Counted from the stretch's first letter, positions 6,495-25,592 are shown. The stretch is DNA of 64,000 nucleotides from a virus (IMGVR_UViG_3300049139_000233:28596-92595), one strand, 5' to 3'. A program made the numbers and translations. The notes: generated by a model from the sequence alone, not told the origin.

Positions 6495-6506
6495 TGAACA
6501 CGCCAA

Positions 6507-6534: not shown

Positions 6535-6554
6535 CAGGGTTGGGTGGCAGCCGG

Positions 6555-7835: not shown

Positions 7836-7869
7836 GTCGTTTCCTCGGTCTCTGGTCTGTGGTCCACAT

Positions 7870-7889
7870 CTGGCCTACGCCTGGCCTAC
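7870..7889. repeat. direct repeat CTGGCCTAC x2 (11-bp period) in the XRE divergent promoter region
   Basis: Copies at 7870..7878 and 7881..7889; a partial third copy, CTGGCAGCTAC, follows. Confidence 0.6.
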
Positions 7890-7959
7890 AGTCTGGCAGC
7901 TACTCCCGGACCGGGGCAGGGCGTTGACTGGTCATCACACGACGACTACGGAGGACAGC

Positions 7960-8340: not shown

Positions 8341-8355
8341 CAGCGGCCGGACAAC

Positions 8356-8397
8356 GGCGAAGCCCCGGGACCTGTGGTGGAGTCCCGGGGCTTCGCC
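8356..8397. terminator. bidirectional hairpin terminator
   Basis: 15-bp arms GGCGAAGCCCCGGGA / TCCCGGGGCTTCGCC, between convergent genes. Confidence 0.65.
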
Positions 8398-8407
8398 GTG
8401 CCTGCGG

Positions 8408-8785
8408 TCAGGGGCGGGGGACTTCCTTCTCCACGCGGCCGACGGCGTCCAGGCCGGTCATCACCAGGTGGATGCTGTTGGCGATGTCCATGAGCAGGTC
8501 ACCGGCCCGGCCGCGCTCCTCACTCACCTCGCGAGTCTCGATGGTGCGGTGGTTGATGCGGCGGACACCGGCGAGGCGGGAGCCGGTGCGGCCAATGCGG
8601 GCGGCCAGGCCGGACAGCGGGTTGTTCTCGTCGTAGCGGTAGCCGTAGCCGTCGGCGGTGATGTAGTCGATGATGCCGGGGATGCCGTAGACCTTGTGCT
8701 CGGCCAGGGTGTCCGCGTAGTGGCTCAGGATGGCGCCGATGTAGAGCATGGCGGGGGCGGCGGCGCGGGTGGCGGTGGCGGTCAT
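8408..8785 (-). CDS. hypothetical protein (125 aa)
   Basis: ATG at 8785 follows a SAS-like leader, with a P-box at 8831..8873. Confidence 0.6.
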   Translation of the reverse strand: MTATATRAAAPAMLYIGAILSHYADTLAEHKVYGIPGIIDYITADGYGYRYDENNPLSGLAARIGRTGSRLAGVRRINHRTIETREVSEERGRAGDLLMDIANSIHLVMTGLDAVGRVEKEVPRP

Positions 8786-8830
8786 CTTCGGTTCCTCATT
8801 CCTTGGTCGGTCGGTGCGGTGTCCCCGTCC

Positions 8831-8873
8831 CGATGAATTAATTAAACCATGGGGTCTCGCAAAGAACAACCCG
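8831..8873 (-). promoter_or_regulatory. P-box promoter/operator
   Basis: Minus strand reads CCGGGTTGTTC-N12-CATGGTTTAATTAATTCATCG. Confidence 0.6.
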
Positions 8874-8953
8874 GAGGATGGCACGGAACCTGTCTGCCGC
8901 AGAATCGCTCCTGGCGAAGCGCAAAACGTGTGTTTTGAGCGCGCCCGGTTCTC

Positions 8954-8997
8954 GGGGTTGCGCGGCAGGGGTCGGCATGGTTTAATTAATCCATGGG
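8954..8997 (+). promoter_or_regulatory. P-box promoter/operator
   Basis: GGGGTTGCGC-N12-CATGGTTTAATTAATCCATGG. It is divergent from the 8831..8873 copy. Confidence 0.6.
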
Positions 8998-9023
8998 TTC
9001 ACCGACCAGGGAACGAGGACCGC

Positions 9024-9254
9024 ATGAGCGCTCAGACCACCACGTGCACGGAGAAGACGGCCAGCCGATGGCACTCGCCCGACCCGTTCGGGGTCTGGGG
9101 TGAGCGTGACCCGAACCCGGTGGACCCGGGCCCGTACCGCGACGGCGAGACCATCGAGTGCCGGACGTGCGGTGCCACCGTCGTCGTGACGCACCGGATC
9201 ACCAACAAGCGCGCGACCGGCACGCAGTACGTCGGCGACCTCGCCGCGCACTGA
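9024..9254 (+). CDS. hypothetical small protein (76 aa), CxxC-containing
   Basis: ATG at 9024 follows GACCAGGGAACGAGGACCGC. There is a P-box at 8954..8997 and a terminator at 9266..9300. Confidence 0.6.
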   Translation: MSAQTTTCTEKTASRWHSPDPFGVWGERDPNPVDPGPYRDGETIECRTCGATVVVTHRITNKRATGTQYVGDLAAH

Positions 9255-9265
9255 CCTCAGACGCG

Positions 9266-9300
9266 GAGAAGCCCCGCCGGACCGCCCGGCGGGGCTTCTC
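9266..9300 (+). terminator. hairpin terminator
   Basis: GAGAAGCCCCGCCGG / CCGGCGGGGCTTCTC. Confidence 0.65.
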
Positions 9301-9344
9301 CGCTTCCCAGGCAGCCCACAGGCTGGAAGGTAGGCTCATCGTAC

Positions 9345-10427
9345 GTGACCACCACGATCACGACCACCGGCGCCGGCAGTCCCCTCCTCGCCTCCGCGAT
9401 GCACGACCACCTCGCCTCCCTGCGCGAGCGGCTTGGCGTGGTCCGGCCGCGCGACCGCCGCACCCGCCGGCTCAGCCCGCCGGTGTACCGGCTGGACCTG
9501 CTGCACGAGCTGGTGGAGCGCGAGACGTTCGAGCACGTCGTCACCTGGCTGCGGTCGCGCCGCTCCGACGGCACCGCCCGGGAGTACGCGGATGACGTCC
9601 GGCACTGGGCCCTGGCCGGGCGGGAGTTGTGCGGCACCGAGCCGTGGTACCTCGGCTCCATCACCCCGGACGTCATTCCGGTGTGGCGCGGATGGGCGAC
9701 GGAGGATCTGGGGCTGCGCGGCCGGCGGGTCAACCGGCTCTGCTCCTCTCTCACCTCGCTGATCGAATGGGTGAAGTACCAGACCCGCCAGGAGCTGATC
9801 CACCCCATCACCCGGTACGACCGGTTCAAGGTCGACCCGGACGACGAGTCGTCCATGACCCCGATCCTGGAAGTCGCCGAGCTGCAAGCCGTGCTGAACG
9901 CGTGCGACACGGCCCGGCAGGCGTTCGCGGTCTCCCTGATCTACACCCTGGCAGGCCGCGTCTCGGAGTGCTGCGACGCCGGCGCGGATGACCTGTCCTC
10001 GGAGTCGGGGACGTGCGTGCTCACCTTGCGGCGCAAGGGCGGCAAGACGGTGCCGTTCCCGCTGCCGGCGGAGCTGTGCGAGCTGGGCGCGGCGGCCTGG
10101 CGGGGCAGCACGAGCACGGCGCTCCTGCTCGATGACGACGGCCGGCCGATGGACCGGCACGCGGTGGACCGGCTGCTCAACCGCCTCGGCCGGACGGCCG
10201 GTGTCCTGCCCGGCCGGGACCTCACCCCTCACGTCCTGCGCGCGAGCAAGCTGACCCACATGTACGACGAGGGCACGGCGCCGGACGACATCCGCCGGTT
10301 CGCCGACCACGCGAACGTCTCCACGACCATGCGGTACATCCGGCGCCGCACGAACGCGGGTCTGCGCGCGAAGCACACGCAAGCGGCCGTGAAGGTGTAC
10401 GAGGGCCTGGTGAACCGGTTCCTGTGA
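9345..10427 (+). CDS. int: tyrosine recombinase / integrase
   Basis: C-terminal catalytic region: ...LTPHVLRASKLTHMYDEGTAPDDIRRFADHANVSTTMRYIRRR (R...HxxR...Y pattern). The N-terminal SAM-like domain contains ...VIPVWRGW.... The GTG start at 9345 is uncertain; ATG 9399 is an alternative. Confidence 0.85.
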   Translation: MTTTITTTGAGSPLLASAMHDHLASLRERLGVVRPRDRRTRRLSPPVYRLDLLHELVERETFEHVVTWLRSRRSDGTAREYADDVRHWALAGRELCGTEPWYLGSITPDVIPVWRGWATEDLGLRGRRVNRLCSSLTSLIEWVKYQTRQELIHPITRYDRFKVDPDDESSMTPILEVAELQAVLNACDTARQAFAVSLIYTLAGRVSECCDAGADDLSSESGTCVLTLRRKGGKTVPFPLPAELCELGAAAWRGSTSTALLLDDDGRPMDRHAVDRLLNRLGRTAGVLPGRDLTPHVLRASKLTHMYDEGTAPDDIRRFADHANVSTTMRYIRRRTNAGLRAKHTQAAVKVYEGLVNRFL

Positions 10428-10435
10428 CACGACGA

Positions 10436-10463
10436 AGCCCCGGAGTCACGGGACTCCGGGGCT
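10436..10463. terminator. bidirectional hairpin terminator
   Basis: AGCCCCGGAGTC-acgg-GACTCCGGGGCT, between int and the convergent small gene. Confidence 0.65.
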
Positions 10464-10485
10464 GGTCTGCGGGCAGGGACCGTGG

Positions 10486-10767
10486 TCAGGCGCGGGAGAC
10501 GCGTACGTAGGTGCCGGTGACGGCGTCGCCGGCGACCCAGTTGCCCTCACGCTTCCAGCCGTTCGCGGTGAGGACGGAGTCCGCCTCGGCGTACGGGCCG
10601 TCGGGCTCCGCGCCCATGACGTAGTCCACGCTGTCGCCGGTCAGCCGGATCGTCTCCGACAGCACGGCGTCCTTGCCTTCCCGGCCGCCGTACATCGTGA
10701 CGCCCTCGAAGACCTCCACGCGGGCCGTGTCGTCGGATTCAGCGGTGAGGTACGCGCGAGTCTGCAT
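10486..10767 (-). CDS. hypothetical protein (93 aa), single-gene cassette
   Basis: Internal ATG at 10767. P-box at 10794..10834 and a shared hairpin at 10436..10463. Confidence 0.6.
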   Translation of the reverse strand: MQTRAYLTAESDDTARVEVFEGVTMYGGREGKDAVLSETIRLTGDSVDYVMGAEPDGPYAEADSVLTANGWKREGNWVAGDAVTGTYVRVSRA

Positions 10768-10793
10768 GGTCAGTTCCTCCGTGGTCCGTGTTC

Positions 10794-10834
10794 CTGATTT
10801 GATTAAATCATGCTTCGGCCGGGACGGCAACCCC
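10794..10834 (-). promoter_or_regulatory. P-box promoter/operator
   Basis: Minus strand reads GGGGTTGCCG-N12-CATGATTTAATCAAATCAG. It overlaps the 3' end of the exonuclease gene. Confidence 0.55.
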
Positions 10835-12079
10835 GGCCGCCATCTCCCGCAGCCGGTCCACGACCGCGCGGCAGTCCGACGCGGCCCGGTGGTCCCCGCC
10901 GTACAGCGGCTGCCAGCGGTAACCGCCGTGGTAGTCGGACCACTCCCCCACCCAGTCGGAGTAGGGCACCATCACGTCCTCGAACCGCAGCGTCTCCAGC
11001 CACGCGGCGGCCGAGGCGGCGGGGTCGTCGTGCCCGGCCTCGCGGTAGTGCAGCGTCAGCTCGTGCCGCAGCCGGCCGACGTCGAACCCCCGGTTGTAGA
11101 CCAGGCACCGCCGGTTGATCAGTGCGCCGGTGAGCTGCACCAGGACTTCTCCGAACCGGGGCTTCCCCCGCACGTCCGCGTCGGTGATGCCGTGGACGTC
11201 TGCCGCCTCGGCCGGAATCGGCTCGCCCGGGTCGAGCAGCGTGTCCACCAGGACCTCGCCGCCGACGGTCACCACGGCGATGTCCACGATGCGCGCCCCG
11301 TCGTGCAGCCCGGACGTCTCCGTGTCCAGGACGACCGTGCGCGGATCGGCGAGGGCGTCCCGCGCCCACGCCGACAGGTCCGCGACCTCACAGCGACGGG
11401 CTTCATCAACCCGGCGCGCGTTCTCCGCGTCCTCGCGGCGCCGGGTCTCCTGCCAGCGGCCGTACGCCTCGGCACACGGCGGGCACCGCCGTGGTTCCCG
11501 CCAGGTCCCGGCCGCCCGCGCAGCGTCGATCTCCTCGTCCGTCACCGTCTGCGCCGTGCACTCGTGGCCCGGGTATCCGGGGCAGGTACGGCGCCACGCG
11601 GCGGCCCGCTCGTCGGCGAGCTGCTTGCAGAGCGCATAGCGGATCCGGCACGGGTCGCACGACGGCCAGCCGTGCACGTCCCTCGGCAGCGCGGCCCCGG
11701 CCTCGCGCCGGCACCTCTCGCAGGTGCGTGCCCACCGGTCCTGCGCTTCCTGCTGCGCCCGTGTCTGGCAGTCGGTGCACCGGGTGTAGACGACGTACCC
11801 GCGCACCTCCTTGCACTCCGGGCAGGTGCGGCGGGACGTCATCGCGGTGCGCTGCTTCGCGGACAGCGGGCGCATCGCCGCTGCGCCGGCGGGGTCGTAC
11901 ATCGGGAACTCGCCCCAGCCGTGTCCGCGCCGGTACACCCGCAGCAGGGCCACCGGCTCCTGGCCGTCGGCCGGCTTGAGCCGGTCCGCCTTCAGCTCCG
12001 TCCGGGTGCGCAGATGCTGGTGGTGCTCGGGGATGTCCCGGCGCTCATAGACCGGGAGCGACGTGGTGGTGTCGGTCAT
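10808..12079 (-). CDS. DnaQ-like (DEDDh) 3'-5' exonuclease with Cys-rich N-terminal region
   Basis: Exonuclease motifs: VVLDTETSGL, HGITDADV, VYNRGFD, GGDHRAASDC. The N-terminal half has repeated CxxC pairs (CPECK, CTDCQ, CERCR, CDPCR, CPPCA). I prefer ATG 12079. Confidence 0.75.
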   Translation of the reverse strand: MTDTTTSLPVYERRDIPEHHQHLRTRTELKADRLKPADGQEPVALLRVYRRGHGWGEFPMYDPAGAAAMRPLSAKQRTAMTSRRTCPECKEVRGYVVYTRCTDCQTRAQQEAQDRWARTCERCRREAGAALPRDVHGWPSCDPCRIRYALCKQLADERAAAWRRTCPGYPGHECTAQTVTDEEIDAARAAGTWREPRRCPPCAEAYGRWQETRRREDAENARRVDEARRCEVADLSAWARDALADPRTVVLDTETSGLHDGARIVDIAVVTVGGEVLVDTLLDPGEPIPAEAADVHGITDADVRGKPRFGEVLVQLTGALINRRCLVYNRGFDVGRLRHELTLHYREAGHDDPAASAAAWLETLRFEDVMVPYSDWVGEWSDYHGGYRWQPLYGGDHRAASDCRAVVDRLREMAAGVAVPAEA

Positions 12080-12114
12080 ATCGGGAAGGTACCGCGAGGC
12101 ACTGACAACCGAGG

Positions 12115-12348
12115 TCAGTTCGGGGCGCGCAGTCGGTAGTCCGGGCACTTGCCGGGGTCACCCCACGGCGCCTTGTGAGGCTTGGTGCTTCCGCACCAGG
12201 GGCACGGGAGCACCGGGCGGGCCTGGCTTCCCTCGATCCCGCAGTACCCGGCGTCGCCGAACTCGGCGTTGCTGTAGACGACGATGGCCGGACGGCCGCA
12301 GGTGCACAGCTCGCCGGGTGCGGCGAGTCGCTCTGTCGAGTCGGTCAC
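12115..12348 (-). CDS. hypothetical Cys-rich small protein (77 aa)
   Basis: GTG start at 12348 overlaps the upstream stop (GTGA). Sequence includes CTCGRPA...CPWCGS. Confidence 0.55.
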   Translation of the reverse strand: MTDSTERLAAPGELCTCGRPAIVVYSNAEFGDAGYCGIEGSQARPVLPCPWCGSTKPHKAPWGDPGKCPDYRLRAPN

Positions 12349-12596
12349 CGCCCGGCCTCTCGAACGCCGGCGACGACCCCGTCCAGGAACGCGTACACGC
12401 TCGCTCGGTCCATTGGGCTCTGGCCACTGCCGCCCACGTGCACCGAGTACCTGTCGTCGTCCAGGTCGATGACGTGGATGCGCAACCCGGTCTCACAGGC
12501 CGCGACGCCAGCGGTCCACTGAACCTCCAGATGAGGGGGCCAGTTCGGGTCATACGGCGGGTTGTGGCTGCCATCGGGGTTCCGCGTCACGTCCAT
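12345..12596 (-). CDS. hypothetical protein (83 aa)
   Basis: Internal ATG at 12596. Composition is balanced from MDVTRNPDG onward. Confidence 0.5.
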   Translation of the reverse strand: MDVTRNPDGSHNPPYDPNWPPHLEVQWTAGVAACETGLRIHVIDLDDDRYSVHVGGSGQSPMDRASVYAFLDGVVAGVREAGR

Positions 12597-12627
12597 GGCC
12601 TGCAGACTACCGGCCGCCGACGGCCCG

Positions 12628-13059
12628 TCAGGCCCATTCCCGCGAGGCGAGCAGGGCCGCGCCGGCCCACACTGCGCCCCACACGAGGGCAGGGGCTGGG
12701 ACACCGACGGTGAGGGCGACGGCGGCGGTGACGGCGGCGGACAGCCAGCCGGACACGCACCACGGGCAGGTGATCAGCTCGGCCAGCCAGTACGGGGACC
12801 AACGGACCCGGCGCACGTACCGGTTCGTCTGGCCGTCGATGAGCGTCAGCGTGCCGAGCTGAGGGTGCCGGACGAACGGCTCGTCGTCCGTCGGACGGGC
12901 CGGGGCCCACTTCTCCTGCTCCGGTTCCGTCAGCGGGCGCCAGCCGCCGGCGAGGCGGTCGCGCAGCCAGAGCACCGGCGGGAAGGTGTCGCGGGCGGCG
13001 AGGCGGGAGGCGCGGTACGAGGCGAGGATCATGCAGGCGATGAGCAGCCAGGTGGGCAC
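12628..13059 (-). CDS. membrane protein, DUF1360-like
   Basis: TM helices plus ELITCPWCVSGWL, the signature I associate with DUF1360. GTG at 13059 follows GACCACGGAGCC. Confidence 0.6.
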   Translation of the reverse strand: MPTWLLIACMILASYRASRLAARDTFPPVLWLRDRLAGGWRPLTEPEQEKWAPARPTDDEPFVRHPQLGTLTLIDGQTNRYVRRVRWSPYWLAELITCPWCVSGWLSAAVTAAVALTVGVPAPALVWGAVWAGAALLASREWA

Positions 13060-13174
13060 TGTCGTGGCTCCGTGGTCCGTGGACGGGACGCCCTGTCGGG
13101 CGACGTGTTGGAGGTGGTCACCAGGCCGAGCGCCCCGCCGTAGGAGAGACGTTCCGCCTGGTGTGCCGGTTGCG

Positions 13175-13540
13175 TCAAGCGACGAGACGTCCGGGCGGGG
13201 AGACCTGTGCCGGCTGCGGCGCGGTGACGTTCGGCCGGGTGACGAACCACGCGACGATCAGCATCGCGGCGCCGACGACCTTCGCCTGCGTCTCGGAGTC
13301 CCACCCGAACCCGAAGTACGCAACGAGCGACACCCCGGCGACCACGAGGCCGTTCAGGGCGGCGATGATGCCGTCCCCCACCTGTACGGCGACGATGACG
13401 CCGAGAACGGCCGCGACGATGGCGGTGATGATGGACTGGAGCTGCGGGTCGAACCCGAGACCGAACGCGCTCAGGATCTGCCACACCGCGCCGACGGCCG
13501 CCATCCACACGGCCGGCTCCCGGCCGTAGACCTTGCCCAT
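13175..13540 (-). CDS. multi-pass membrane protein (holin candidate)
   Basis: 121 aa with 3-4 hydrophobic helices. It lies in a membrane-protein cluster downstream of terminase. Confidence 0.45.
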   Translation of the reverse strand: MGKVYGREPAVWMAAVGAVWQILSAFGLGFDPQLQSIITAIVAAVLGVIVAVQVGDGIIAALNGLVVAGVSLVAYFGFGWDSETQAKVVGAAMLIVAWFVTRPNVTAPQPAQVSPPGRLVA

Positions 13541-13555
13541 GATTCCTCCGTTGAC

Positions 13556-13837
13556 TCAGTGGTCGGGCCGGGCCAGGGCGCGGTCCAGCTTGTCCTCGAT
13601 GCGTTCCAGGTCCCGGGCGTCGGCCGCGAACAGCCAGTGCTTCGCACCCATCAGCAGGACCGCCTGGAAAACAAGCTGGAACCACTCGCTCTGCCAGTTC
13701 TCGAACGTCGCCGACCAGAATTCCGACCAGCCCTCTTGCCGGATCTTGGGCTGCATGGCGATGAGCTGGCCGGCCCACGACCCGGCGAACAGCAGGACGA
13801 GGATGTAGACCGCGCCCCAACGGCGGAAGTGACGCAC
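13556..13837 (-). CDS. membrane protein (93 aa)
   Basis: GTG at 13837 follows GGGAGGG-N4. One TM helix, then WSEFWSATFENWQSEWFQLVFQAVLLMG. Confidence 0.5.
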   Translation of the reverse strand: MRHFRRWGAVYILVLLFAGSWAGQLIAMQPKIRQEGWSEFWSATFENWQSEWFQLVFQAVLLMGAKHWLFAADARDLERIEDKLDRALARPDH

Positions 13838-13895
13838 CGACCCTCCCGAGGTAGACCCGGGCAGGGTAGGGCAGATCCGTCGATTCACCGACTCG

Positions 13896-14159
13896 TCACA
13901 GCAGCCCGCCGGTCGGCACGGTGACCGTGCTGGGCTTCCGCGCCGGCGGTGGGGCTGCGGCGGCCTTCGCGCACCAGGGGCACCGGTCCACCGGGGTGTG
14001 GTGGTGCTGCACGTGAACGGCCTGGCGGCAGATGCACCGGTCGCGGCCGAGGACGCGCACCGCCGCATCAGCGGCGGAGAGGACGGCCCGGGGGTCGGTG
14101 ATGCCGTGCTCGCGCAGGGCCTGGGCTATGGAGGTGAGCAGGGGGTCGTCGTTCACCAT
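13896..14159 (-). CDS. hypothetical protein (87 aa)
   Basis: ATG at 14159 overlaps the upstream stop (ATGA). Contains CICRQ...CPWC. Confidence 0.55.
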   Translation of the reverse strand: MVNDDPLLTSIAQALREHGITDPRAVLSAADAAVRVLGRDRCICRQAVHVQHHHTPVDRCPWCAKAAAAPPPARKPSTVTVPTGGLL

Positions 14160-14413
14160 CACGCTCGCTCCTTCCACTCCCGGAAGTACGTGTCGGCGGC
14201 GTCCTCTTCACCGCTGTCCCGGTCCGGGTCCAGTCCGAGAGCAAGGGCGAGGGCGCGGCGCAGGCCGCTGACTTCCCCGGCGATTGTCAGCTTGACGTGG
14301 AGGTCAGCCCCGGCAGCGGAGCCGAATACAGATGACCTTTCGTACCGGTCCTGAACCTCGGCGATGTGCCTGCACAAGGCGTCGATGTACTCCGGGGGTG
14401 CGGCGTACGTCAT
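14159..14413 (-). CDS. hypothetical protein (84 aa)
   Basis: Internal ATG at 14413 follows GACCAAGGAATGAGGAGACC. Confidence 0.6.
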   Translation of the reverse strand: MTYAAPPEYIDALCRHIAEVQDRYERSSVFGSAAGADLHVKLTIAGEVSGLRRALALALGLDPDRDSGEEDAADTYFREWKERA

Positions 14414-14472: not shown

Positions 14473-15843
14473 TCACCCGATCGTCCGCGTAGCAGAGGCG
14501 AGGCCCCTGGACGACACCGTGCCGGTCACCGTCGGCTTCACGATCCGCTGGTGCCAGGCCGGCCAGACCATCGCGTCCAGCCGGTCCGGTGACCAGTCCA
14601 GCTCGTCGTACCAGGTGCAGAGCTGGTCTTCCAGTTCTTCGTACGTCCCGGCCATGTGCCAACGGCCCTGCTCGGTCAGGGCGCTCACCGGTTCCGCGCG
14701 GACCTTCTTGCCCCTGGTTGCGCGCACCACCTTGATGGGGATGTTGATGCCCATGGCGTCGGCGGCGGCCCGGATGGTGTTGACTGCCATGTCTCCGCCG
14801 AAGTTGACCTCCACGCAGATGTCGTCAGCCTCGTAGTCGATGGCCGCCTGCACCGCGCGCCGGCCCCAGCCGTCCGGCGACAGGCGGCAGGTGCGGTCGG
14901 CGAGCACGTAGCCGTGGGCGAGGTTCACCTTCCGGCCGTCGGTCCGGACGTGCTCCAGCATCGCTTTGCCGTCCACGATGATGCCCTGTTCGCCCCGGCC
15001 GCCCGAGGGGTCCACGCCCACGGACTTGCGCACCATGTGCGGCAGGTCGCTGGGGCGCACACGCGTGGTGTCGAGCATCGCGCGGGTCCACAGCGCGTTC
15101 TCGTCCTGGTCGATGACCTCCGCGTACAGCTCCTGACGGCCGATCTGCGTACCGCCGTACGCGTCCTCCAGCGCAGTCCGGATGTCCTCGGGCAGGTGGG
15201 GGTTGTCGTACGTCGTCGCCCGGGTGACGACCGTGTTCGGTATCTCACCGGCCGTCAGCCGCTTGATGAGGGCACGCGGCTTGGGGGTGGTGGAGGCGAC
15301 CCAGTGCGGGCGGGTCCCGGCGCGCAGACCGAAGCGCATCTGGTCCCACGTCTGGTCCAGGTACCTCCACGCCGCCAGCTCCTCGGCCCACACAACGCAC
15401 CGGTTACCGCCGGACCGCAGGCGTTCGACGTCCTCGGGTGAGTGCGACCCGAATACCTTCGCCTCGCTCCCGTTCGGCCAGCGGATGACTGTGCCGCCCT
15501 GCGCCGTGGTCATCCGCGCCTCGGGGCTGTGCACCCGAAGCCCGGAGGGCCCCGCGTAGCAGGACGTGACCGCGTCGCCGAGGGTCGGGGCGATGATGCC
15601 GACCCAGTGCGGGACGGGACCGGGCAGGCACGGCGGGCCCGTGACGTGCTCGTGGATGTACCGCGCGCAGGCGTCGGTCTTTCCGGCGCCGCGTCCGGCC
15701 ATCAGCAGCCAGCCGTACCAGTCACCGGGCGGCGGGACCTGGTGGGGCAGCGGGGTCCATCGCGGCTCGGTCAGGGTGCGCGCGTGCATGAGCAGCTTCT
15801 CCGCCGCGCGGGTCCTCAGCCTCGCATCCACCATGCCGGTCAT
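14473..15843 (-). CDS. terL: terminase large subunit
   Basis: Walker A LLMAGRGAGKTD and Walker B-like VVWAEELAAW. Nuclease half: VGVDPSGG, VEVNFGGD, SPDRLDAMVW. I prefer ATG 15843 (MTGMVDARL...). Confidence 0.9.
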   Translation of the reverse strand: MTGMVDARLRTRAAEKLLMHARTLTEPRWTPLPHQVPPPGDWYGWLLMAGRGAGKTDACARYIHEHVTGPPCLPGPVPHWVGIIAPTLGDAVTSCYAGPSGLRVHSPEARMTTAQGGTVIRWPNGSEAKVFGSHSPEDVERLRSGGNRCVVWAEELAAWRYLDQTWDQMRFGLRAGTRPHWVASTTPKPRALIKRLTAGEIPNTVVTRATTYDNPHLPEDIRTALEDAYGGTQIGRQELYAEVIDQDENALWTRAMLDTTRVRPSDLPHMVRKSVGVDPSGGRGEQGIIVDGKAMLEHVRTDGRKVNLAHGYVLADRTCRLSPDGWGRRAVQAAIDYEADDICVEVNFGGDMAVNTIRAAADAMGINIPIKVVRATRGKKVRAEPVSALTEQGRWHMAGTYEELEDQLCTWYDELDWSPDRLDAMVWPAWHQRIVKPTVTGTVSSRGLASATRTIG

Positions 15844-15961
15844 TGTCGGACGTCCCGGGCAGCGCGGTTTCCGGAGACGTGACGAGGCCCGCACAGGACG
15901 GGGGTGCCTGGCGGGCCTCGGTCTGCCGGTTGGAGTCAGCAGTGGTTCCGAGTGTACGCGG

Positions 15962-15998
15962 GAGAGCCCGTGCCGGGTCGTGGTCGGCACGGGCTCTC
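15962..15998 (-). terminator. hairpin terminator
   Basis: GAGAGCCCGTGCCG / CGGCACGGGCTCTC, downstream of the lysin. Confidence 0.6.
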
Positions 15999-18059: not shown

Positions 18060-18100
18060 CATTTAGTTAAATCCCCGATCGGTGGTTTTGTTAAACCATC
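18060..18100 (-). promoter_or_regulatory. two degenerate P-box cores
   Basis: Minus strand reads GATGGTTTAACAAAACC-N10-GGGGATTTAACTAAATG, upstream of the triple-LuxR gene. Confidence 0.35.
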
Positions 18101-19181
18101 ACAGGCCCAGCCACAGCGGATGGTCCAGGGACCAGCGCACCGTGCGCTCCAGCGACTCCTCCAGCGGAACCGGAGGCTTCCAGCCGAGGGCGGCGAGCCG
18201 CGAGCCGTCCAGGGCGTAGCGCAGGTCGTGGCCGGGCCGCGAGGAGTGGAAGGACACCGGCTCGATGAGGTCGTCCACGATGGCCGGGTCCAGGCCCATC
18301 ACGCGGCCGACCAGGTGCACCAGCTCCACGTTGTCGACTTCGCGCTCACCGACGATGTGGTACCGCTCGGGCCGGGTGAACGCCCCGTCGCTGTACCGCG
18401 CCGGGCCGGCGGCAATGCGGTACGTCTCCCCGCTCAGCGTCTGCACGTCGGGCGACCCCTCGGTGTACCGGCGCGTCAGGTGCAGCCAGGCGTCGGCGAG
18501 GTTGCGCGCGTGCAGGTAGAACCGGGAGCCCGGGGTGCCGTCGGGAGCGGTGTGCACCGTGACCGGCCGGCGATCGCGCAGCCGGCTGACGATCATGGGG
18601 AGGAACTTCTCCCGGTCCTGCATCTCCCCGATGATGTTCATGGTGTTGGTGATGACGACCGGCACGTCGTAGGTCCGCCAGTAGCTGACCGCGATGGCCT
18701 CTTGGGCGGCCTTGGACGCGCTGTACGGGTTGGACGGCACGACCGGCTCCCACTCCGTGTGCCGGTGGTCGCCGTAGGCCGGGCCGTACACCTCGTCGGT
18801 GGACATCTGGAGGAACACCCTCGGCCGGACGGACCGCGCGACCTCCAGGATGTTGAGCATCAGGGCGACGTTGTTCTGAACGAACGCTGCCGGGTCGGAT
18901 ATCGACCGGTCGACGTGCGACTCGGAGGCGACGTTCATGATGACGTCGCAGCCCTCGAACTGGTGCAGGGTCAGCGGGTCGGCCGGCGCCCGCATGTCCC
19001 AGTGGACGACGTGCACGCGTTCGGACCAGTCGGTGTCGCACACCGCCGACGCGATGCGCGCGGGGAGCCCCTTGTGCCGGAAGGACACCGGGCAGGTGAT
19101 CTCCCAGTCCGTGTTCGCCAGCAGGTGGCGCAGGACGTGGCTACCGACGAAACCCGACGCGCCCGTGAGCAGGACGTGCAT
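18099..19181 (-). CDS. NDP-sugar 4,6-dehydratase (RmlB-like extended SDR)
   Basis: Motifs: MHVLLTGASGFVGSH (GxxGxxG), MSTDEVYG, PYSASKAAQE (YxxxK). Internal ATG at 19181 follows GACCACGGAACGAGGAG. Confidence 0.8.
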   Translation of the reverse strand: MHVLLTGASGFVGSHVLRHLLANTDWEITCPVSFRHKGLPARIASAVCDTDWSERVHVVHWDMRAPADPLTLHQFEGCDVIMNVASESHVDRSISDPAAFVQNNVALMLNILEVARSVRPRVFLQMSTDEVYGPAYGDHRHTEWEPVVPSNPYSASKAAQEAIAVSYWRTYDVPVVITNTMNIIGEMQDREKFLPMIVSRLRDRRPVTVHTAPDGTPGSRFYLHARNLADAWLHLTRRYTEGSPDVQTLSGETYRIAAGPARYSDGAFTRPERYHIVGEREVDNVELVHLVGRVMGLDPAIVDDLIEPVSFHSSRPGHDLRYALDGSRLAALGWKPPVPLEESLERTVRWSLDHPLWLGL

Positions 19182-19252
19182 GGCCACTCCTCGTTCCGTG
19201 GTCTGTGAGCGTGGCCGGATGGTAGCCAGGGACTCCGAAATCACCGAACGTG

Positions 19253-19857: not shown

Positions 19858-20502
19858 TCAGTCCTCCCGGGGTTCGTCGTCGGTCGTCTCGGACACCACT
19901 TCGCCCTCCAGCGTCCGCAGGTGCGCGCCGGCGGCCTCCAGCATCCGCTGCCGCTGCGCGGGCTCCAGCTCGACGGCGTTCGCACCGGCCAGGATCGCCT
20001 CCACCACCACGGTGGTCTCCTCGTCCACCCGGCGGTCGAGCGCGATGGTCAGCCGCTCCGAGGAATCGGTGCCGTCGATCTTGGCCTGGCGTTCCTCGAT
20101 GCGCAGCAGCCGGTCCACGGCCGCCAGCACCGGCGCGTCGTCCCGCAGGGGGTTGCCGTCGTCGTCGCGCACGATCTGGCCCGCGTGCAGCACGTAGTGC
20201 GGCCGGGCGAGGACCGCGTGGACCTGGCGGCGCAGGCCGTCCAGCCGCATCCGCGCCGCCTCGCGGTACTCCTCCAGCCCCATGGCCAGCTCGCGGTTCG
20301 CCTGCTTCAGCGCGCGAGAGACGTCCACGCACGCAGCGGCGGCCGACGGGTTGCCGTCGGAGTCCAGATAGTGCGGCGCCATCTGCTCGGCGACCTGCTG
20401 CCAGGACAGGCCCCGGTTCTTCAGCTCGATGGCACGCGCCCGGCGCTGCGCCACCATCGCCCGGTGGCTCGGCTGGTGGCTGGGCGGATCACCCTTCGCC
20501 AT
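19858..20502 (-). CDS. HTH DNA-binding protein (possible small terminase subunit; uncertain)
   Basis: N-terminal segment QRRARAIELKNRGLSWQQVAEQM, then a coiled-coil-like middle and an acidic tail. GGGAGG RBS. It is the last-but-one gene of the Que/Dpd operon. Confidence 0.4.
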   Translation of the reverse strand: MAKGDPPSHQPSHRAMVAQRRARAIELKNRGLSWQQVAEQMAPHYLDSDGNPSAAAACVDVSRALKQANRELAMGLEEYREAARMRLDGLRRQVHAVLARPHYVLHAGQIVRDDDGNPLRDDAPVLAAVDRLLRIEERQAKIDGTDSSERLTIALDRRVDEETTVVVEAILAGANAVELEPAQRQRMLEAAGAHLRTLEGEVVSETTDDEPRED

Positions 20503-20533: not shown

Positions 20534-21136
20534 TCACCAGCCCCGCCGGGCGCCGCGCGACGGAGTGCCGATGAGATCGAACAGGTCCGCGCGCTGCTGC
20601 GGGTCGTCCAGGAACACCCCGGTGTACGAAGCGGTGACCATCACCGCCCCCGGCTTCCGCGCACCCCGGTGGGCCAGGCACCCGTGCTCCGAGCGGATCA
20701 CGCAGGCGGAGCCGAGGGTGTCCAGATGCTTGTCGAGTGCGTCGGTGACCTGCTTGGTGAGCTGTTCCTGCGTCTGGAGGCGCCGGGCGTAGACGTCCAG
20801 GACCCGGGGCAGCTTGGACAGACCTGCCACCCGCGCGCCCGGGGTGGGCAGGTAGGCGATGTCCGCCGTGCCCGTGAACGGCAGCAGGTGGTGCTCACAG
20901 ACGGACGTGAACTCCACCCCGGTCACCGCGATGGGCTGCCCGCCGCGCTCCACGTCGAAAGTGCGCTCCAGCAGCTCGCCGGCGTCCAGGGCGTAGCCGG
21001 CCGTGAACTCCTCCAGTGCCCGGAGCATACGGGCCGGCGTTCCGGCCAGGGCCTCGGAGTCGGGGTCCAGGCCCCGCCCGGCGAACCAGGTCCGCAGGCC
21101 GCTGACGAACAGGTTGTGCGCGGTCGTCTCGCTCAT
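20534..21136 (-). CDS. folE: GTP cyclohydrolase I
   Basis: Motifs: FTSVCEHHLLPF, IAYLP, LSKLPRV, QERLT-like QEQLT, CLAHRG. Confidence 0.9.
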   Translation of the reverse strand: MSETTAHNLFVSGLRTWFAGRGLDPDSEALAGTPARMLRALEEFTAGYALDAGELLERTFDVERGGQPIAVTGVEFTSVCEHHLLPFTGTADIAYLPTPGARVAGLSKLPRVLDVYARRLQTQEQLTKQVTDALDKHLDTLGSACVIRSEHGCLAHRGARKPGAVMVTASYTGVFLDDPQQRADLFDLIGTPSRGARRGW

Positions 21137-21849
21137 CGGCCTCTCTCATCTCCCCACGCGTGGACGTGCAGGCGCGTGGTCACGTTGAATCCGGCTCGGA
21201 TCGCGGGCTCCGCGATCTCGGACAGGTGGCGGGACAAGGTGGCGGAGTCCGTGCCCTCGGGCATGACCCACACCCGGCGGGCGGGGATCCCGTGTGCGGC
21301 CGTCAGCTCCACCGTTCCGGCGACGTCGCCGGCGTCGCGGCACACGACCTTGAACGCCGCCTTCCCCGTGGCGGCCAGGGCCTTGAGCGCCGTGCCGTTG
21401 ACGCGCCGGTCCCCGGCGACCCCGGAGTGCGCCAGCTTGGGCGAGACGACGAACCGGGTCAGCAGCCGAGCCGTCTCCTCGCTCGGTTCCACCGTGCCGT
21501 TCGTCTCCGCCTCCACCCGGATCCCGGCGCCGGTCAGGCCGCGCAGAACAGCTCCCCAGCCCGGGTAGCCCTGCTGGAGCAGGGGTTCGCCCCCGGAGAC
21601 GATGACGAACCGGACTCCGGTGGCCAGCAGCCGGTCCACGATCATGTCCGCGTCCATGCGCCGCAGCTCAGCGCGCAGGTCGTGCCGCGAGGCGTCCCAC
21701 GTCCACGGGGTGTCACACCACGAGCAAGTGAGGTTGCAGCCGCCGAGCCGCAGGAACGCACACCGCTGGCCCAGCGTCGGGCCCTCGCCGGACACCGTCG
21801 GCCCGAAGATCTCCGAGACGACCAGGGACGGCCGCGCCGGCGCGGTCAC
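21133..21849 (-). CDS. queE: 7-carboxy-7-deazaguanine synthase (radical SAM)
   Basis: Motifs: IFGPTVSGEGPTLGQRCAFLRLGGCNLTCSWCDTPWTW. Coupled to the neighbouring genes by 4-nt overlaps. Confidence 0.9.
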   Translation of the reverse strand: MTAPARPSLVVSEIFGPTVSGEGPTLGQRCAFLRLGGCNLTCSWCDTPWTWDASRHDLRAELRRMDADMIVDRLLATGVRFVIVSGGEPLLQQGYPGWGAVLRGLTGAGIRVEAETNGTVEPSEETARLLTRFVVSPKLAHSGVAGDRRVNGTALKALAATGKAAFKVVCRDAGDVAGTVELTAAHGIPARRVWVMPEGTDSATLSRHLSEIAEPAIRAGFNVTTRLHVHAWGDERGR

Positions 21850-22283
21850 GGTGACTCACCCGTCCAAGACGCCTCGTTGACGGCCGTCTCCCGCACGTCT
21901 ACGTTCACCACGCGGGCGCCGTTGGCGTGGTCCACTGTGGCGAGGATCCCCGAGGCGACGGACGCCAGCAGCTCTGCTGTCGCCTCCACCGTCGGCCACG
22001 AGTCCTCGAACTCGAACACCTTGGAGCCCATCGAGCACAGCACGGGCAGCAGCGGGTCGGCAGTACCGAGCATCGCGCCGTGGTCCAGGTGGTGATCGAT
22101 CCACTCGCGAACGGCGCGCTTGAACGCGCCGAACTCCACGACGATGCCGTCCGCGTTCAGGGCCGGGGCCGCCACGGTGATCTCCACCCACCAGGAGTGG
22201 CCGTGCAGGTTGAAGCACTTGCCGCCCAGCTCGGGCAGCCGGTGGGCGGTCTCGAAGTTGTGCCGGACCGTGACGCTGTTCAT
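21846..22283 (-). CDS. queD: 6-carboxy-5,6,7,8-tetrahydropterin synthase
   Basis: Internal ATG at 22283 (ATGA overlap with queC). Sequence: NFETAHRLPELGGKCFNLHGHSWWVEI. Confidence 0.9.
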   Translation of the reverse strand: MNSVTVRHNFETAHRLPELGGKCFNLHGHSWWVEITVAAPALNADGIVVEFGAFKRAVREWIDHHLDHGAMLGTADPLLPVLCSMGSKVFEFEDSWPTVEATAELLASVASGILATVDHANGARVVNVDVRETAVNEASWTGESP

Positions 22284-22954
22284 GCCGCGTACTCCGTGGG
22301 GTCGGTGAGCCCGGCGTCGGCAAACGCCTCCTTGCGCTCGGTGCACGTCCCGCAGGTGCCGCAGTGCACGGCGCCACCCTTGTAGCAGGACCAGGACATG
22401 CCCACCGGGGCGCCGATGCGCTCCGCGTAGGCGGCTATCTCCGTCTTCGTCATGCCGACGAACGGAGTGACGATCTGTGGGACGTGCAGACCCTTGAGCG
22501 CGACAGCCGCCAGCTCCCGCAGCGCGTCCACGAACTCGGGGCGGCAGTCCGGGTACACGGCGCGGTCGCCGGCGTGAATACCGAGGCCGATCAGCTCCGC
22601 GCCCCGGGCCGAGGCGACCCCCAGCGCGATGGACGCCATGATGGCGTTGCGGTTGGGCACTACGGTGGACTTCATCGACTCGTCCTCGTAGTGACCGTCC
22701 GGGACGTCCACGGTCTCGTCGGTGAGGGAAGAGCCGGGCAGCAGCGGGGCGAGGGAGGACAGGTCCACCGTGCAATGCTCCGCGCCGAGGTAGCCGGCGA
22801 TCCCGGCCGCCGCCTCCAGCTCCCGGGCTCGGTGCCGCTGGCCGTAGTTGAAGGACAGCAGCAGCAGGTCGTACTCCTTGCGCACGTAGTGTGCCGCCAG
22901 AGTCGTTGAGTCCATGCCCCCGGAGAACGAGAGCACGGCGAGCGGTTTGGTCAC
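22280..22954 (-). CDS. queC: 7-cyano-7-deazaguanine (preQ0) synthase
   Basis: PP-loop LSFSGGMDSTTL and C-terminal Zn cluster CYKGGAVHCGTCGTCTERKEAF. Confidence 0.9.
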   Translation of the reverse strand: MTKPLAVLSFSGGMDSTTLAAHYVRKEYDLLLLSFNYGQRHRARELEAAAGIAGYLGAEHCTVDLSSLAPLLPGSSLTDETVDVPDGHYEDESMKSTVVPNRNAIMASIALGVASARGAELIGLGIHAGDRAVYPDCRPEFVDALRELAAVALKGLHVPQIVTPFVGMTKTEIAAYAERIGAPVGMSWSCYKGGAVHCGTCGTCTERKEAFADAGLTDPTEYAA

Positions 22955-23859
22955 GGAGTTTCCTTCCGTAGGTCAGCGGCGATGGCCTGGGCCGCCGGGG
23001 TGAAGTTGCTGATGGTCGTGTCGGCGAGGAACAGACAGGTGCCGCGCGAGGTCCAGCCGGGCGGCGGTGCGACGTCGTGGCGTTGCTGAAGCCATCGCCC
23101 GAGCCGGTGGTACGCGACGGCCGGGGTGCCGCGCATCATCCGGTCCTCGCGGCGGAACTGTTCAGGTGCCTTACCGGTCTTGAGGCCGAAACCGGGACGG
23201 CCGACAACAGCAGGGTCGGCGCCGTGCGCGCGGATAAGCCGTGCCTGCCGGCGCACCCTCTCCGGATTGCCTGCCGACACCTGAACGATGCGCCCCGCAC
23301 GGCCGTCAAAGAGCTTGAACAGGCCGAACTTGGCTCCATGACTCCAGGTGGACGAGTCCACGCTGTAGAACGGCAGCGAGGACATGACCGTGATGTTGGT
23401 CTGGCCGAAGCCGTGGAAGACGGTTCCGTGCGCGGCTCCGATGCGGAAGCAACGCACCAGCCAGCGCATGACCTCGCCGTACATCCGCGTGTACGGCACC
23501 ATGCCGCCCAGAGCGACGTACCGGTACTGCGCACACAGCTTCTCCAGCCGCTCCCACGGAGACCCGACGTGGAAGACGGGGAGTACCTTCAGGCCCATGT
23601 CCTCCAGCGCGAGGGTGTTGCGCTGAGTCGCGTCCGGGTCGCCGATGACGTCCAGGGTCGCCGCCGTGGTGACGAGGTGCTGCCAGTCCTTCAGCCAGGC
23701 CGCGTAGTCGGCAAGGCGAATGGTCGAGCCGAGCGTGGCGGCAGAGAAGGCTCCCGAATCGGCGAACACCTCCACGGGGGCTCCGCCGGCGGCGTCCGCG
23801 ATGGCCTGGAGATCCTTGCCCCGGCCGTAGTGGAACGACATCAGGAAGCGGAACGTCAC
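22951..23859 (-). CDS. dpdA: DpdA-like DNA/tRNA-guanine transglycosylase paralog 1
   Basis: GTG at 23859 overlaps the upstream stop (GTGA). TGT-like motifs VFADSGAFS (compare TGT DSGGF) and YVALGGMVPY. It aligns along its length with the neighbouring paralog. Confidence 0.75.
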   Translation of the reverse strand: MTFRFLMSFHYGRGKDLQAIADAAGGAPVEVFADSGAFSAATLGSTIRLADYAAWLKDWQHLVTTAATLDVIGDPDATQRNTLALEDMGLKVLPVFHVGSPWERLEKLCAQYRYVALGGMVPYTRMYGEVMRWLVRCFRIGAAHGTVFHGFGQTNITVMSSLPFYSVDSSTWSHGAKFGLFKLFDGRAGRIVQVSAGNPERVRRQARLIRAHGADPAVVGRPGFGLKTGKAPEQFRREDRMMRGTPAVAYHRLGRWLQQRHDVAPPPGWTSRGTCLFLADTTISNFTPAAQAIAADLRKETP

Positions 23860-24785
23860 ACCACACCCCCTGGGGCGTTGTCCCGCTCGATCCTCAACGC
23901 ACGTGCAGCCTGCTTGAACCGGGCCGGGTTGGCGTCCGCGAGGAAGAGGACCGTCCCCGGGTGCTCCCAGCCGAGGGGCGCGGGTACCTGGTGGCGTTTC
24001 GCCAGCCACTGCCCAAGACGGTAGAAGGCCACGGCCGGAGCCCCGCGCATCATCTGCGTCTCGACTGCGTGCTGCTTTGGAGTCCTGTGGGGGGACTGGG
24101 CGAAGCCCGGCCGGCCGACCAGAGCCGGGTCCGCCCCGTGAGAGCGCATCAGCGTCGCGTACCTGCGCGCCTGCGCCGGGTGGGAGACCTGCACCTGCAC
24201 GATCCGGGCCTTGCGCTCGTCCCACAAAGGGAGCTGGCCGAAGCGTGAGCCCGCGCCCCAGGCGGAGGAGTCGACACTGTAGAACGGCAACGCGGCGAGG
24301 GTGGCAACCTTGGTTTGTCCGAACCCGTGGAACACGGTCCCTTGCTCCGCTCCGATGCGGAAGCACCGGATGAGCCACCGCAACACCTCATCGGAGTACT
24401 TGGCGTACGGCACCATGCCGCCAAGCGCGAGATACGGGTACGCCTTGCACAGCCTCTCCAGCTCGGACCAGGGCGAACCGACGTGGAAGGTGGGCAGGAC
24501 GGTAAGGCCGGCCGACAGTAGAGCCTCAGTGTTGCGGTGCGTGGCGTCTGGGTCGCCGATGACGTCCAGGGTCGCCGCCGTGGTGATGACCTGGGACCAC
24601 TCCTCCAGCCAGGCCGCGTAGTCCTTCAGGTGCACAGTGGCGCCGACGTTGGCGACGGAGAAGGCGCCCGAGTCGGCGAAGACCTCCACCGGTCCGCCGT
24701 AGAGCGCACGCAGCTCCATCACCAGCTCCGCCAGATCGACGTTGCGGAAGAAGGCGTAGGAGAGCAGGCAGCGCAGCGGGGTCAC
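23856..24785 (-). CDS. dpdA: DpdA-like DNA/tRNA-guanine transglycosylase paralog 2
   Basis: GTG at 24785 overlaps the ParB-like stop (GTGA). Motifs: VFADSGAFS, YLALGGMVPY, FHGFGQT, PFYSVDSS. Confidence 0.75.
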   Translation of the reverse strand: MTPLRCLLSYAFFRNVDLAELVMELRALYGGPVEVFADSGAFSVANVGATVHLKDYAAWLEEWSQVITTAATLDVIGDPDATHRNTEALLSAGLTVLPTFHVGSPWSELERLCKAYPYLALGGMVPYAKYSDEVLRWLIRCFRIGAEQGTVFHGFGQTKVATLAALPFYSVDSSAWGAGSRFGQLPLWDERKARIVQVQVSHPAQARRYATLMRSHGADPALVGRPGFAQSPHRTPKQHAVETQMMRGAPAVAFYRLGQWLAKRHQVPAPLGWEHPGTVLFLADANPARFKQAARALRIERDNAPGGVV

Positions 24786-25468
24786 TCGGCCGCCTTCACC
24801 CGCTGCACCAGGAACATGAAGCGCACCGAGTCGTCGGACGGGTCCTCGCAGTCCTTCGTCAGCTCCATGAAGTCGTCCCGGACGGCCGGCGGAACGCGCA
24901 CCCGGATGACGGGCCACAGGTCGGTCTCCTGGGGCTCGCCGTACTCCTCGGCGAGGTCGTCCAAAGACGGAGGGGGTTCGACGGCCGGAGGCAGTGAGGT
25001 GAACAGGTCCGCGTCGGACGGCTCGTACCCGGTGCCCACCAGGTCGTCCTCCAGCGAGGCGAGCAGGGCCGCCAGGGACGCGTCGTCGTAGGTGCCGTCG
25101 TCGGCGGCCTTGTTGTCCACCAGGTTGATGCGCGTGGCGGTCGCGTCGTCGCACTCGATGAGGTGCGCGAGCGCCGTCGGGTCGTCGGCGTCCACGTCCA
25201 CGCAGAGCTGGCACGGCCGGTCGTTGGACAGCTCCCAGTCCTGGCACGCCTCGCGGCCGGACTCCTCGTGCCGCAGCAGCGCGAGGTACGTGTGGTTCCC
25301 GGCGAGGATGCTCAGGGTCTCGCCGTGCCGGCGCACCGTGAGCGGCTTGTACTGGCCGTTCGCGCGCAGGGAGTCGAGGATCACGTCCACGTTGCCCCGG
25401 CGTGCGTTGCCCTCGAACGGCGTGAGGTCTTCCAGGGGGACCCGCTCGGTCCCGATGGTCGTGGTCAT
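24782..25468 (-). CDS. ParB/Srx-like N-terminal-domain protein (possible DpdB-like accessory factor)
   Basis: ATG at 25468 follows GGAGGA-N7. ParB box: LEDLTPFEGNARRGNVDVILDSLRANGQYKPLTVRRHGETLSILAGNHTYLAL. Confidence 0.7.
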   Translation of the reverse strand: MTTTIGTERVPLEDLTPFEGNARRGNVDVILDSLRANGQYKPLTVRRHGETLSILAGNHTYLALLRHEESGREACQDWELSNDRPCQLCVDVDADDPTALAHLIECDDATATRINLVDNKAADDGTYDDASLAALLASLEDDLVGTGYEPSDADLFTSLPPAVEPPPSLDDLAEEYGEPQETDLWPVIRVRVPPAVRDDFMELTKDCEDPSDDSVRFMFLVQRVKAAE

Positions 25469-25543
25469 CGTTGCGTCCTCCACCTGGTCGACGGACGCGG
25501 CGATGTTAAGACCGCACAGGGTCATGATCGTTCCGGAGCACGG

Positions 25544-25577
25544 CGAAGCCCCGGGCCGCGAGGGCTCCGGGGCTTCG
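25544..25577 (-). terminator. hairpin terminator
   Basis: CGAAGCCCCGG / CCGGGGCTTCG. Confidence 0.6.
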
Positions 25578-25592
25578 TGGTCTGCCGGACAG

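Follow-up and report, generated by a model that had tools for sequence, protein, structure and literature searches.

Why would a phage operon for 7-deazaguanine DNA modification hold two genes for its base-exchanging enzyme DpdA, and why does a ParB-like gene lead them? The question is raised by a viral stretch of 64,000 nucleotides (IMGVR_UViG_3300049139_000233:28596-92595), analysed here as a whole and called the window. Translation of its minus strand at 20534-25468 gives seven intact genes in the order ParB-like, DpdA, DpdA, QueC, QueD, QueE and FolE, and all six junctions between them are 4-nt overlaps of the form ATGA or GTGA, so the gene order and coupling read by a first-pass annotation are borne out. 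The operon is otherwise of a known kind; the departure from described systems is its tandem, anciently duplicated DpdA array, an arrangement that recurs in other genomes. The literature searched, with one major review lying outside it, holds no mention of duplicated phage dpdA genes. Within the window there are no further DpdA or ParB-like copies.

The duplicated DpdA genes

The two copies are referred to below by the type names given here.

23856-24785, minus strand: DpdA, 'A2-type', upstream copy; 309 amino acids (aa); phrog_887 'queuine tRNA-ribosyltransferase', 3e-41
22951-23859, minus strand: DpdA, 'A1-type', adjoining QueC; 302 aa; phrog_887, 1e-50

The proteins are 58% identical over 294 aa. 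Their genes are 66% identical in DNA, which together with the orthologous pairs found in four genomes rules out an assembly artefact or a collapsed repeat. Three relatives (one IMG/VR contig and two Streptomyces-assembly contigs) share the cassette, with proteins 69-92% identical to those of the window. In L003-L005 the A2-type orthologs are 69-81% identical and the A1-type orthologs 80-84%, with ratios of non-synonymous to synonymous substitution rates (dN/dS, Nei-Gojobori method) of 0.18-0.43 and 0.17-0.27, respectively; the corresponding values for QueC are 0.14-0.20. Both DpdA copies are under purifying selection. Across the four genomes each copy groups with its positional ortholog, and since orthologs (69-84%) are closer to each other than paralogs (56-59%), the duplication predates the four genomes and both copies have been retained.

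A survey of how widely such arrays occur took in 112 distinct related loci, drawn from IMG/VR and GTDB genomes and found by DpdA motif patterns and tblastn (E ≤ 1e-5); all survey counts cover this DpdA subfamily only and are lower bounds. One DpdA gene is present in 94 loci, two in 17 and three in one, although a two-copy locus (L044) is possibly one frameshifted gene. The prophages of Streptomyces cattleya, with three tandem DpdA genes, and S. canus, with two, hold more distant cassettes that adjoin terminase and portal genes. These prophages lie at about 667.8-684.7 kb of CP003219.1 and 3.599-3.616 Mb of CP107986.1, respectively. A neighbour-joining tree resolves three paralog types in the Streptomyces group and places sister-pair duplications also in Kutzneria, L077, L131 and the group of cassettes that have no QueC. 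This suggests several independent DpdA duplications, their number being approximate as the tree carries no support values. Of the 230 phage records in which DpdA has a match, three at most show a second one. Microbacterium phage Megan, for which BFVD lists two different 'queuine tRNA-ribosyltransferase' proteins (A0A649VKF2 and A0A649VLV5, of 305 and 319 aa), may be a cultured phage with two DpdAs.

The three S. cattleya genes (L009 6192-8906, prophage in CP003219.1) have all catalytic motifs intact, and the second and third proteins share long identical stretches such as TGSTIKLADYAAWLHQWRHVITTAATLDVIGDP, a pattern that suggests gene conversion between these paralogs. For the window paralogs the same question gets no informative answer, the only identical run being one of 37 nt over the conserved TLDVIGDP motif.

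Such stretches bear on the possibility that the duplication is redundant, a dosage effect or a neutral remnant in which both enzymes serve the same sites. The gene-conversion-like identity linking the S. cattleya paralogs would fit it, as would the small number of clade-specific substitutions and the identical pocket residues of the two window copies. It is hard to reconcile, however, with paralogs that have drifted to 58% identity while their orthologs stay at 69-84% under purifying selection, with distinct paralog clades common to Streptomyces prophages, and with duplications that recur in other lineages; moreover, phage genomes rarely retain redundant 0.9-kb genes. We therefore regard redundancy as improbable.

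Both copies keep the motifs VFADSGAFS, LGGMVPY, FHGFGQT and PFYSVDSS and have diverged elsewhere, just as had been read from the sequence at first. D34 (in DSGAF), D70, H97 and D168 (in DSS) show no variation between the copies or within the family alignment, so that neither copy lacks a catalytic Asp; the pocket residues F38, D74 and G119 are equal in both copies and in the DpdA of mycobacteriophage Rosebush. Judging by motif order and spacing, D34, F38, D70, H97 and D168 would correspond to Asp95, Phe99, Asp130, His181 and Asp256 described in bacterial DpdA (PMC10164549), which likewise has two Asp, a base-recognising Asp and His, and a stacking Phe four residues past the first Asp.

Two intact active sites matter for another explanation, namely that the paralogs form an obligate heteromer like QTRT1/QTRT2, with the complex as the active DNA transglycosylase. 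Eukaryotes supply the precedent in the superfamily of tRNA-guanine transglycosylase (TGT), a duplicated pair acting together as a heterodimer (PMC10164549); the window pair, known here from genes alone, is tandem and translationally coupled, which would give matched expression, and orthologous pairs are kept together in all four (4/4) close genomes. But QTRT2 is non-catalytic, whereas D34, D70, H97 and D168 are kept in every array copy with the exception of H97T in the second copy of L086. Copy number also varies among relatives, from one (L063, L067) through two in most to three in S. cattleya, a cassette with one copy modifies DNA in Rosebush, bacterial DpdA is monomeric, and two-domain fusions number 0 in the best 150 of 7,836 matched family representatives. 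An obligate heteromer is in our opinion unlikely; the absence of catalytically dead copies and of fused forms favours two independent enzymes. The simplest reason for keeping two or three of these would be that they prefer different sequence contexts.

As to their family, tblastn matches the window DpdAs to DpdA genes of Nonagvirus (9g-type), CAjan-, iggy- and Dp-1-like phages (E 1e-10 to 1e-21), with about 33% identity to validated-type DpdAs over residues 34-209, and the A2-type copy matches Bipper- and Rosebush-type DpdA as well. By these matches both belong to the phage 9g-type subfamily, later named DpdA1, and both keep the His that DpdA2 lacks. The CAjan and iggy enzymes, single-gene DpdA1 proteins with BLAST-level similarity to the window copies, share with them the subfamily and the predicted base, but each comes as one DpdA with no ParB-like partner reported, and CAjan covers two motifs with one enzyme. 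An AlphaFold2 model of the A1-type copy (mean pLDDT 95.7) has strands and helices alternating as in a beta/alpha barrel; it matches the DpdA of Arthrobacter phage Sonali in BFVD (TM-score 0.85), and it resembles the predicted structures of nt-1 DpdA2 (8e-4) and phiST DpdA3 (1.4e-2). The link to TGT is drawn from the PHROG annotation, BLAST links to validated phage DpdAs, these predicted-structure matches and published HHpred results; an hhalign alignment paired FADSGAFS with the TGT motif TDSGGFQ, though not significantly.

Compared with bacterial DpdA the window proteins are remote. Models of the bacterial enzyme score them at E 0.03-0.09, far below cutoff (NCBIfam NF041059, 11.7 bits versus a cutoff of 200; PADLOC DpdA, E = 0.026 and for the A2-type copy only), and the zinc-site cluster CxCxxC...H of TGT and bacterial DpdA is found in neither window sequence. 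At the other end of the protein, the DpdA homologs P0031, P0061 and P0066 (362-390 aa) carry a C-terminal 'GT-x-(V/L)(Y/F)LA' strand and helix repeated three or four times, and Rosebush gp2 also has extra copies of this last strand-plus-helix unit.

The operon and its expected DNA modification

The other genes of the operon and the features that flank it are as follows.

24782-25468, minus strand: ParB-like gene; 228 aa; phrog_723 'ParB-like', 7e-40
22280-22954, minus strand: QueC (7-cyano-7-deazaguanine, preQ0, synthase); 224 aa; PF06508, 1.4e-59, residues 6-214
21846-22283, minus strand: QueD (6-carboxytetrahydropterin, CPH4, synthase); 145 aa; PF01242, 1.2e-24; phrog_2389
21133-21849, minus strand: QueE (7-carboxy-7-deazaguanine, CDG, synthase, a radical S-adenosylmethionine enzyme); 238 aa; PF04055, 2e-10; phrog_2076, 6e-58
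20534-21136, minus strand: FolE (GTP cyclohydrolase I); 200 aa; PF01227, 1.1e-53
25532-25589, minus strand: RNA hairpin between the stop of the upstream open reading frame (ORF; 25593) and the ParB-like start
19858-20502, minus strand: conserved downstream gene; 214 aa; phrog_645, 'RNase E' in phage records

FolE, QueD, QueE and QueC convert GTP to preQ0, and because actinobacterial hosts often do not have this pathway, the phage would need to bring its own. The full pathway is present in the window, with Pfam and PHROG matches for all four enzymes and readable motifs (CEHH in FolE, HGH, CNLTCSWC in QueE, the SGGMDS PP-loop and a C-terminal Cys cluster in QueC), and the two DpdA-family transglycosylase genes lie inside the same operon. 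Gene-for-gene synteny with gp1-gp6 of Rosebush (Rosebushvirus, cluster B2) makes it very likely that this is a Rosebush-type cassette replacing part of the guanines of the phage's own DNA with 7-cyano-7-deazaguanine (dPreQ0), and so lends support to the first-pass proposal of a 7-deazaguanine operon with this product. In Rosebush the order is ParB-like, DpdA, QueC, QueD, QueE, FolE, the junctions overlap, and the cassette stands just upstream of the terminase and packaging genes. Its proteins are 31-49% identical to those of the window. It differs in having one DpdA of 385 aa instead of two of 302 and 309 aa, in a gp1 without the Cys-rich insertion of the window ParB-like protein, and in its host group, Mycobacterium rather than Streptomyces. 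Cassette order and overlap coupling are the same in Sonali gp86-91.

The Rosebush parallel is valuable as its DNA was analysed: dPreQ0 makes up about 28% of G by liquid chromatography-tandem mass spectrometry, several restriction enzymes are resisted, and FolE, QueD, QueE and QueC plus DpdA were concluded to be the minimal set sufficient for dPreQ0 (PMC6884629). In CAjan, deletion of dpdA abolished the modification. That dPreQ0 is the product to expect in the window is a prediction by homology only, made because of the Rosebush synteny, the unfused QueC and the lack of a preQ0-converting domain in ten neighbouring ORFs: Pfam finds no fused amidotransferase (Gat) domain in the 224-aa QueC and no QueF, GATase or ArcS-type match among the ten ORFs tested near the cassette. 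In the phage the four enzymes would thus make preQ0 from GTP, and DpdA-type transglycosylases would swap G for preQ0 in duplex DNA after replication, leaving DNA that should resist restriction enzymes; the operon stands upstream of the packaging genes and shares their orientation. Both paralogs are most likely active, and since the pocket residues of both equal those of Rosebush, they would insert the same base. They probably differ in the sequence context they prefer and so would cover more of the G contexts of a genome with 70% G+C. The motifs known for phage DpdAs are GA and GGC for CAjan and GA for iggy.

One could also imagine that one paralog inserts another 7-deazaguanine, such as CDG or 7-amido-7-deazaguanine (ADG), or acts on RNA, giving two kinds of modification. 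Some phage DpdAs are promiscuous for preQ0, preQ1 and CDG, and systematic changes in the DpdAs of QueC-less cassettes show that the pocket can be retuned. Both window copies, however, have the Rosebush-type pocket (F38, D74, G119), and no tailoring-enzyme gene was found near the cassette; we consider this explanation very unlikely. The QueC-less cassettes themselves, of the Typha/Bipper type (L017, L018, L021, L023, L025, L028, L033, L124, L134 and L135), run ParB-like (one to three copies), DpdA, a short unknown gene, QueD, QueE and FolE. Relative to the QueC-containing group their DpdA pocket has F38 replaced by H, D74 by A or G and G119 by K, and they may insert a different base, for example 7-carboxy-7-deazaguanine.

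A secondary-metabolite (toyocamycin-like) cluster is ruled out for the window by the DpdA genes and by the portal, terminase and primase-polymerase context. It should be noted for annotation that such preQ0 gene sets in Streptomyces are prophage DNA-modification modules and not 7-deazapurine secondary-metabolite clusters.

The limits of the operon can be placed from its flanks. The hairpin has a minimum free energy of -40.3 kcal/mol (z = -4.79), and none of 200 shuffled sequences folds equally well. GGAGGA stands 6 nt upstream of the ParB-like ATG at 25468, and orthologs of the protein share the start MTTT(V/I)GTERV; for these reasons, and given the hairpin, we place the start at 25468 and not at the head of the longer ORF from 25525. 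A hairpin after the preceding stop and GGAGGA before the ATG make the ParB-like gene look like the first of its unit, and the hairpin is probably the boundary of the transcription unit. A sigma-70 promoter scan of the operon region found nothing. On the other side, the phrog_645 gene, which begins 31 nt past FolE and is found at that position also in the three relatives, is probably part of the packaging block and not of the modification pathway; in phage Nadezda, FolE and the terminase gene have a gene annotated 'RNaseE' between them.

The ParB-like protein

An AlphaFold2 model of the ParB-like protein (pLDDT 88.8) has as its top Foldseek matches M. xanthus ParB-CDP (3e-7), B. subtilis ParB (6sdk), PadC (6ryk), Noc, KorB and sulfiredoxin, and so the model assigns it to the ParB/sulfiredoxin (Srx) fold. 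Where Spo0J has GERRYRA and DpdB has DGQQR (GxxRxxA), it reads AGNHTYLA, with Arg replaced by Thr. GNHT is found also in its orthologs and in gp1 of Rosebush, and no form is commoner among the ParB-like hits in related loci than AGNHT, which 54 of them carry, so in the sequences compared the change is a trait of the family; the protein may not be an NTPase. Its C-terminus has a conserved acidic segment (PPSLDDLAEEYGEP...LWPVIRVRVPP), and its dN/dS is 0.25-0.48. A Cys-rich insertion, CQDWELSNDRPCQLC, at window positions 25202-25249 (residues ~74-89) is shared by close orthologs and may form a small metal-binding element; Rosebush gp1, Sonali gp86 and the second ParB-like gene of L004 lack it.

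The association with this DpdA subfamily is strong. A ParB-like homolog lies directly upstream of, or between, DpdA genes in 66 of 100 evaluable loci, some of them non-actinobacterial contigs from metagenome-assembled genomes, and translational coupling to DpdA is seen in Rosebush, Sonali, Zemanar and Nadezda/Bipper. The first-pass annotation took this arrangement to be unestablished for phages, which does not hold; a dpdB-like role had even been proposed for the gene of mycobacteriophage CRB2, which 'could encode a dpdB homolog' (PMC6392294). The ParB-like domain also matches the N-terminal part of phrog_498, annotated as DNA methyltransferases (2e-16, residues 6-174), is found in Arthrobacter phage Shambre1 gp1, and has homologs that adjoin methyltransferase genes. 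In phrog_498 and Shambre1 gp1 it is attached to a DNA base-modifying enzyme as a domain within the methyltransferase gene, whereas the window has it as a protein of its own, coupled to a transglycosylase. Its recurrence with methyltransferases as well as with DpdA would fit a protein that serves base-modifying enzymes in general by bringing them to DNA.

How far does the parallel with the bacterial Dpd system (Salmonella Montevideo) go? There too the gene for a TGT-like transglycosylase is coupled with that of a ParB-fold protein, DpdB, whose reported Protein Data Bank (PDB) neighbours PadC, Noc, pNOB8 ParB and sulfiredoxin are of the types found for the window model. Of the earlier suggestion of a DpdB-type helper, then, fold class and linkage to dpdA stand, the latter as a 4-nt overlap with the first DpdA gene. 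The remainder does not: DpdB models go unmatched, the DGQQR motif and the SspE-like alpha-helical C-terminal domain are missing, with only ~70 residues following the ParB domain, and at 228 aa the protein is half the size of DpdB, which must be much larger to form a homodimer of 80-95 kDa. By sequence it is not a member of the DpdB family. The bacterial systems further differ in having dpdC-K genes, which the window system does not have, and in modifying < 0.1% of G.

The ParB/Srx-fold protein, a conserved partner of this DpdA subfamily, is most likely DNA-binding and an aid to DpdA in engaging its substrate, which would make it a functional analogue of bacterial DpdB. Taken together, a dPreQ0 cassette with two active, context-divergent DpdAs and a ParB-like helper is the explanation we find best, with somewhat better than an even chance of being right. 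The analysis establishes what the genes are, their synteny and conservation, the purifying selection on them, the fold class and the co-occurrence, whereas we infer the dPreQ0 product, the activity of both copies, their divergent specificity and the helper role.

Several points weigh against this explanation, beginning with the reliance on homology and conservation for functional statements about this phage and the multi-copy clade. Mycobacteriophage Orion encodes DpdA alone and its DNA is unmodified, and the related phage Zemanar has the ParB-like/DpdA pair without preQ0 genes; a ParB-like/DpdA pair by itself therefore need not mean modification. Searches of known structures gave the DpdAs little: Foldseek against PDB returned weak, mostly TIM-barrel matches at E > 2e-3 with neither TGT nor bacterial DpdA (7UI4) in the top 50, family-profile and single-sequence searches of PDB sequences found nothing relevant, and hhalign of the family profile with E. 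coli TGT gave a probability of 3%. Clade-fixed differences between the paralog types number just 12, mostly conservative, and show no specificity signature. For the ParB-like protein, the arginine of the nucleotide-binding motif (GxxR/DGQQR) is missing, no PADLOC or NCBIfam DpdB model matches it at E up to 0.1-1, and the DpdAs of 9g, nt-1 and VH7D, phages of Gram-negative hosts, work alone in E. coli.

The last three points would also fit a ParB-like protein that has nothing to do with base exchange and happens to share the operon, be it a nuclease, a regulator, or a protein for partition or anti-defence. So would the wider distribution of its homologs, which occur in 304 phage records versus ~230 with detectable DpdA and in some cases adjoin methyltransferases. 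On the other hand, adjacency to DpdA in two thirds of evaluable loci spans diverse lineages and mostly involves overlapping stop and start codons, the pairing is kept where the cassette otherwise differs (QueC-less groups, Zemanar), and recurrent association with two kinds of DNA base-modifying enzyme points to a role on DNA substrates. An unrelated function is a serious possibility, if short of even, and we prefer the helper role. About two thirds of loci have a ParB-like gene beside a DpdA of this subfamily, the locus of experimentally modified Rosebush among them, which makes it directly testable whether phage DpdAs use a partner as bacterial DpdA uses DpdB.

More tentatively, arrays of two or three intact DpdA paralogs led by a GNHT ParB/Srx protein could be modular multi-specificity systems, in which each paralog has its own context, a larger or more varied share of G is modified, and the ParB-like protein serves all of them as a DNA-loading or scanning subunit without the canonical NTP-binding arginine. 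We think this somewhat unlikely as it stands. If true, the repeated duplications would record an arms race with restriction enzymes and 7-deazaguanine-directed defences. The arrays also serve the question of what sets DpdA sequence specificity, motifs being known only for CAjan and iggy: related but distinct paralogs are matched pairs for mapping specificity determinants, and they sit in culturable Streptomyces prophages.

Other ParB-like genes were noticed in related genomes. A second, shorter one lies 1.3-1.7 kb upstream of the cassette in L004 (4708-5070), L005 (4693-5061) and L010 (4777-5229). In Streptomyces phage TurkishDelight (L007, 88490-93518) two ParB-like genes precede two methyltransferase genes that have one for a glutamine amidotransferase-domain protein between them, a putative further ParB-led DNA-modification cassette.

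The rest of the phage genome

Genes for a portal protein, large terminase, tail-lysin-like transglycosylase, integrase, primase-polymerase, helicase, exonuclease and DNA methyltransferase mark the window as phage DNA, and no close relative at the DNA level was found among sequenced phage isolates. A DpdA protein identical to that of the window is recorded on a 92.6-kb JGI metagenome contig; some 28 kb of the window's 92.6-kb source contig extend beyond the window. The large terminase (14473-15990) and portal (1892-3733) genes are ~10.7 kb apart, and are adjacent in the S. cattleya prophage. The region between them, 3794-14177, may have been inserted as a mobile or accessory module. It encodes a helix-turn-helix/tetratricopeptide-repeat regulator (6555-7835), an RNase T-like exonuclease (10808-12079), a GP88-family protein and, on the opposite strand, a tyrosine-type integrase (9345-10427); it also has a 335-aa ORF next to one of 96 aa whose match to 'Strep_pep' is weak and sub-threshold.

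Modification of other kinds is also hinted at. Two NDP-sugar epimerase/dehydratase-like genes, one closely resembling dTDP-glucose 4,6-dehydratase, and two glycosyltransferase genes (18099-19187, 55708-56646, 44171-44815 and 54956-55711) suggest glycosylation of virion proteins or possibly of DNA; the epimerase/dehydratase-like gene at 18099-19187 lies ~1.3 kb downstream of FolE, three genes away. Finally, the DNA methyltransferase gene at 62193-63191 (phrog_116, 1e-35) may give the phage a second kind of DNA modification.

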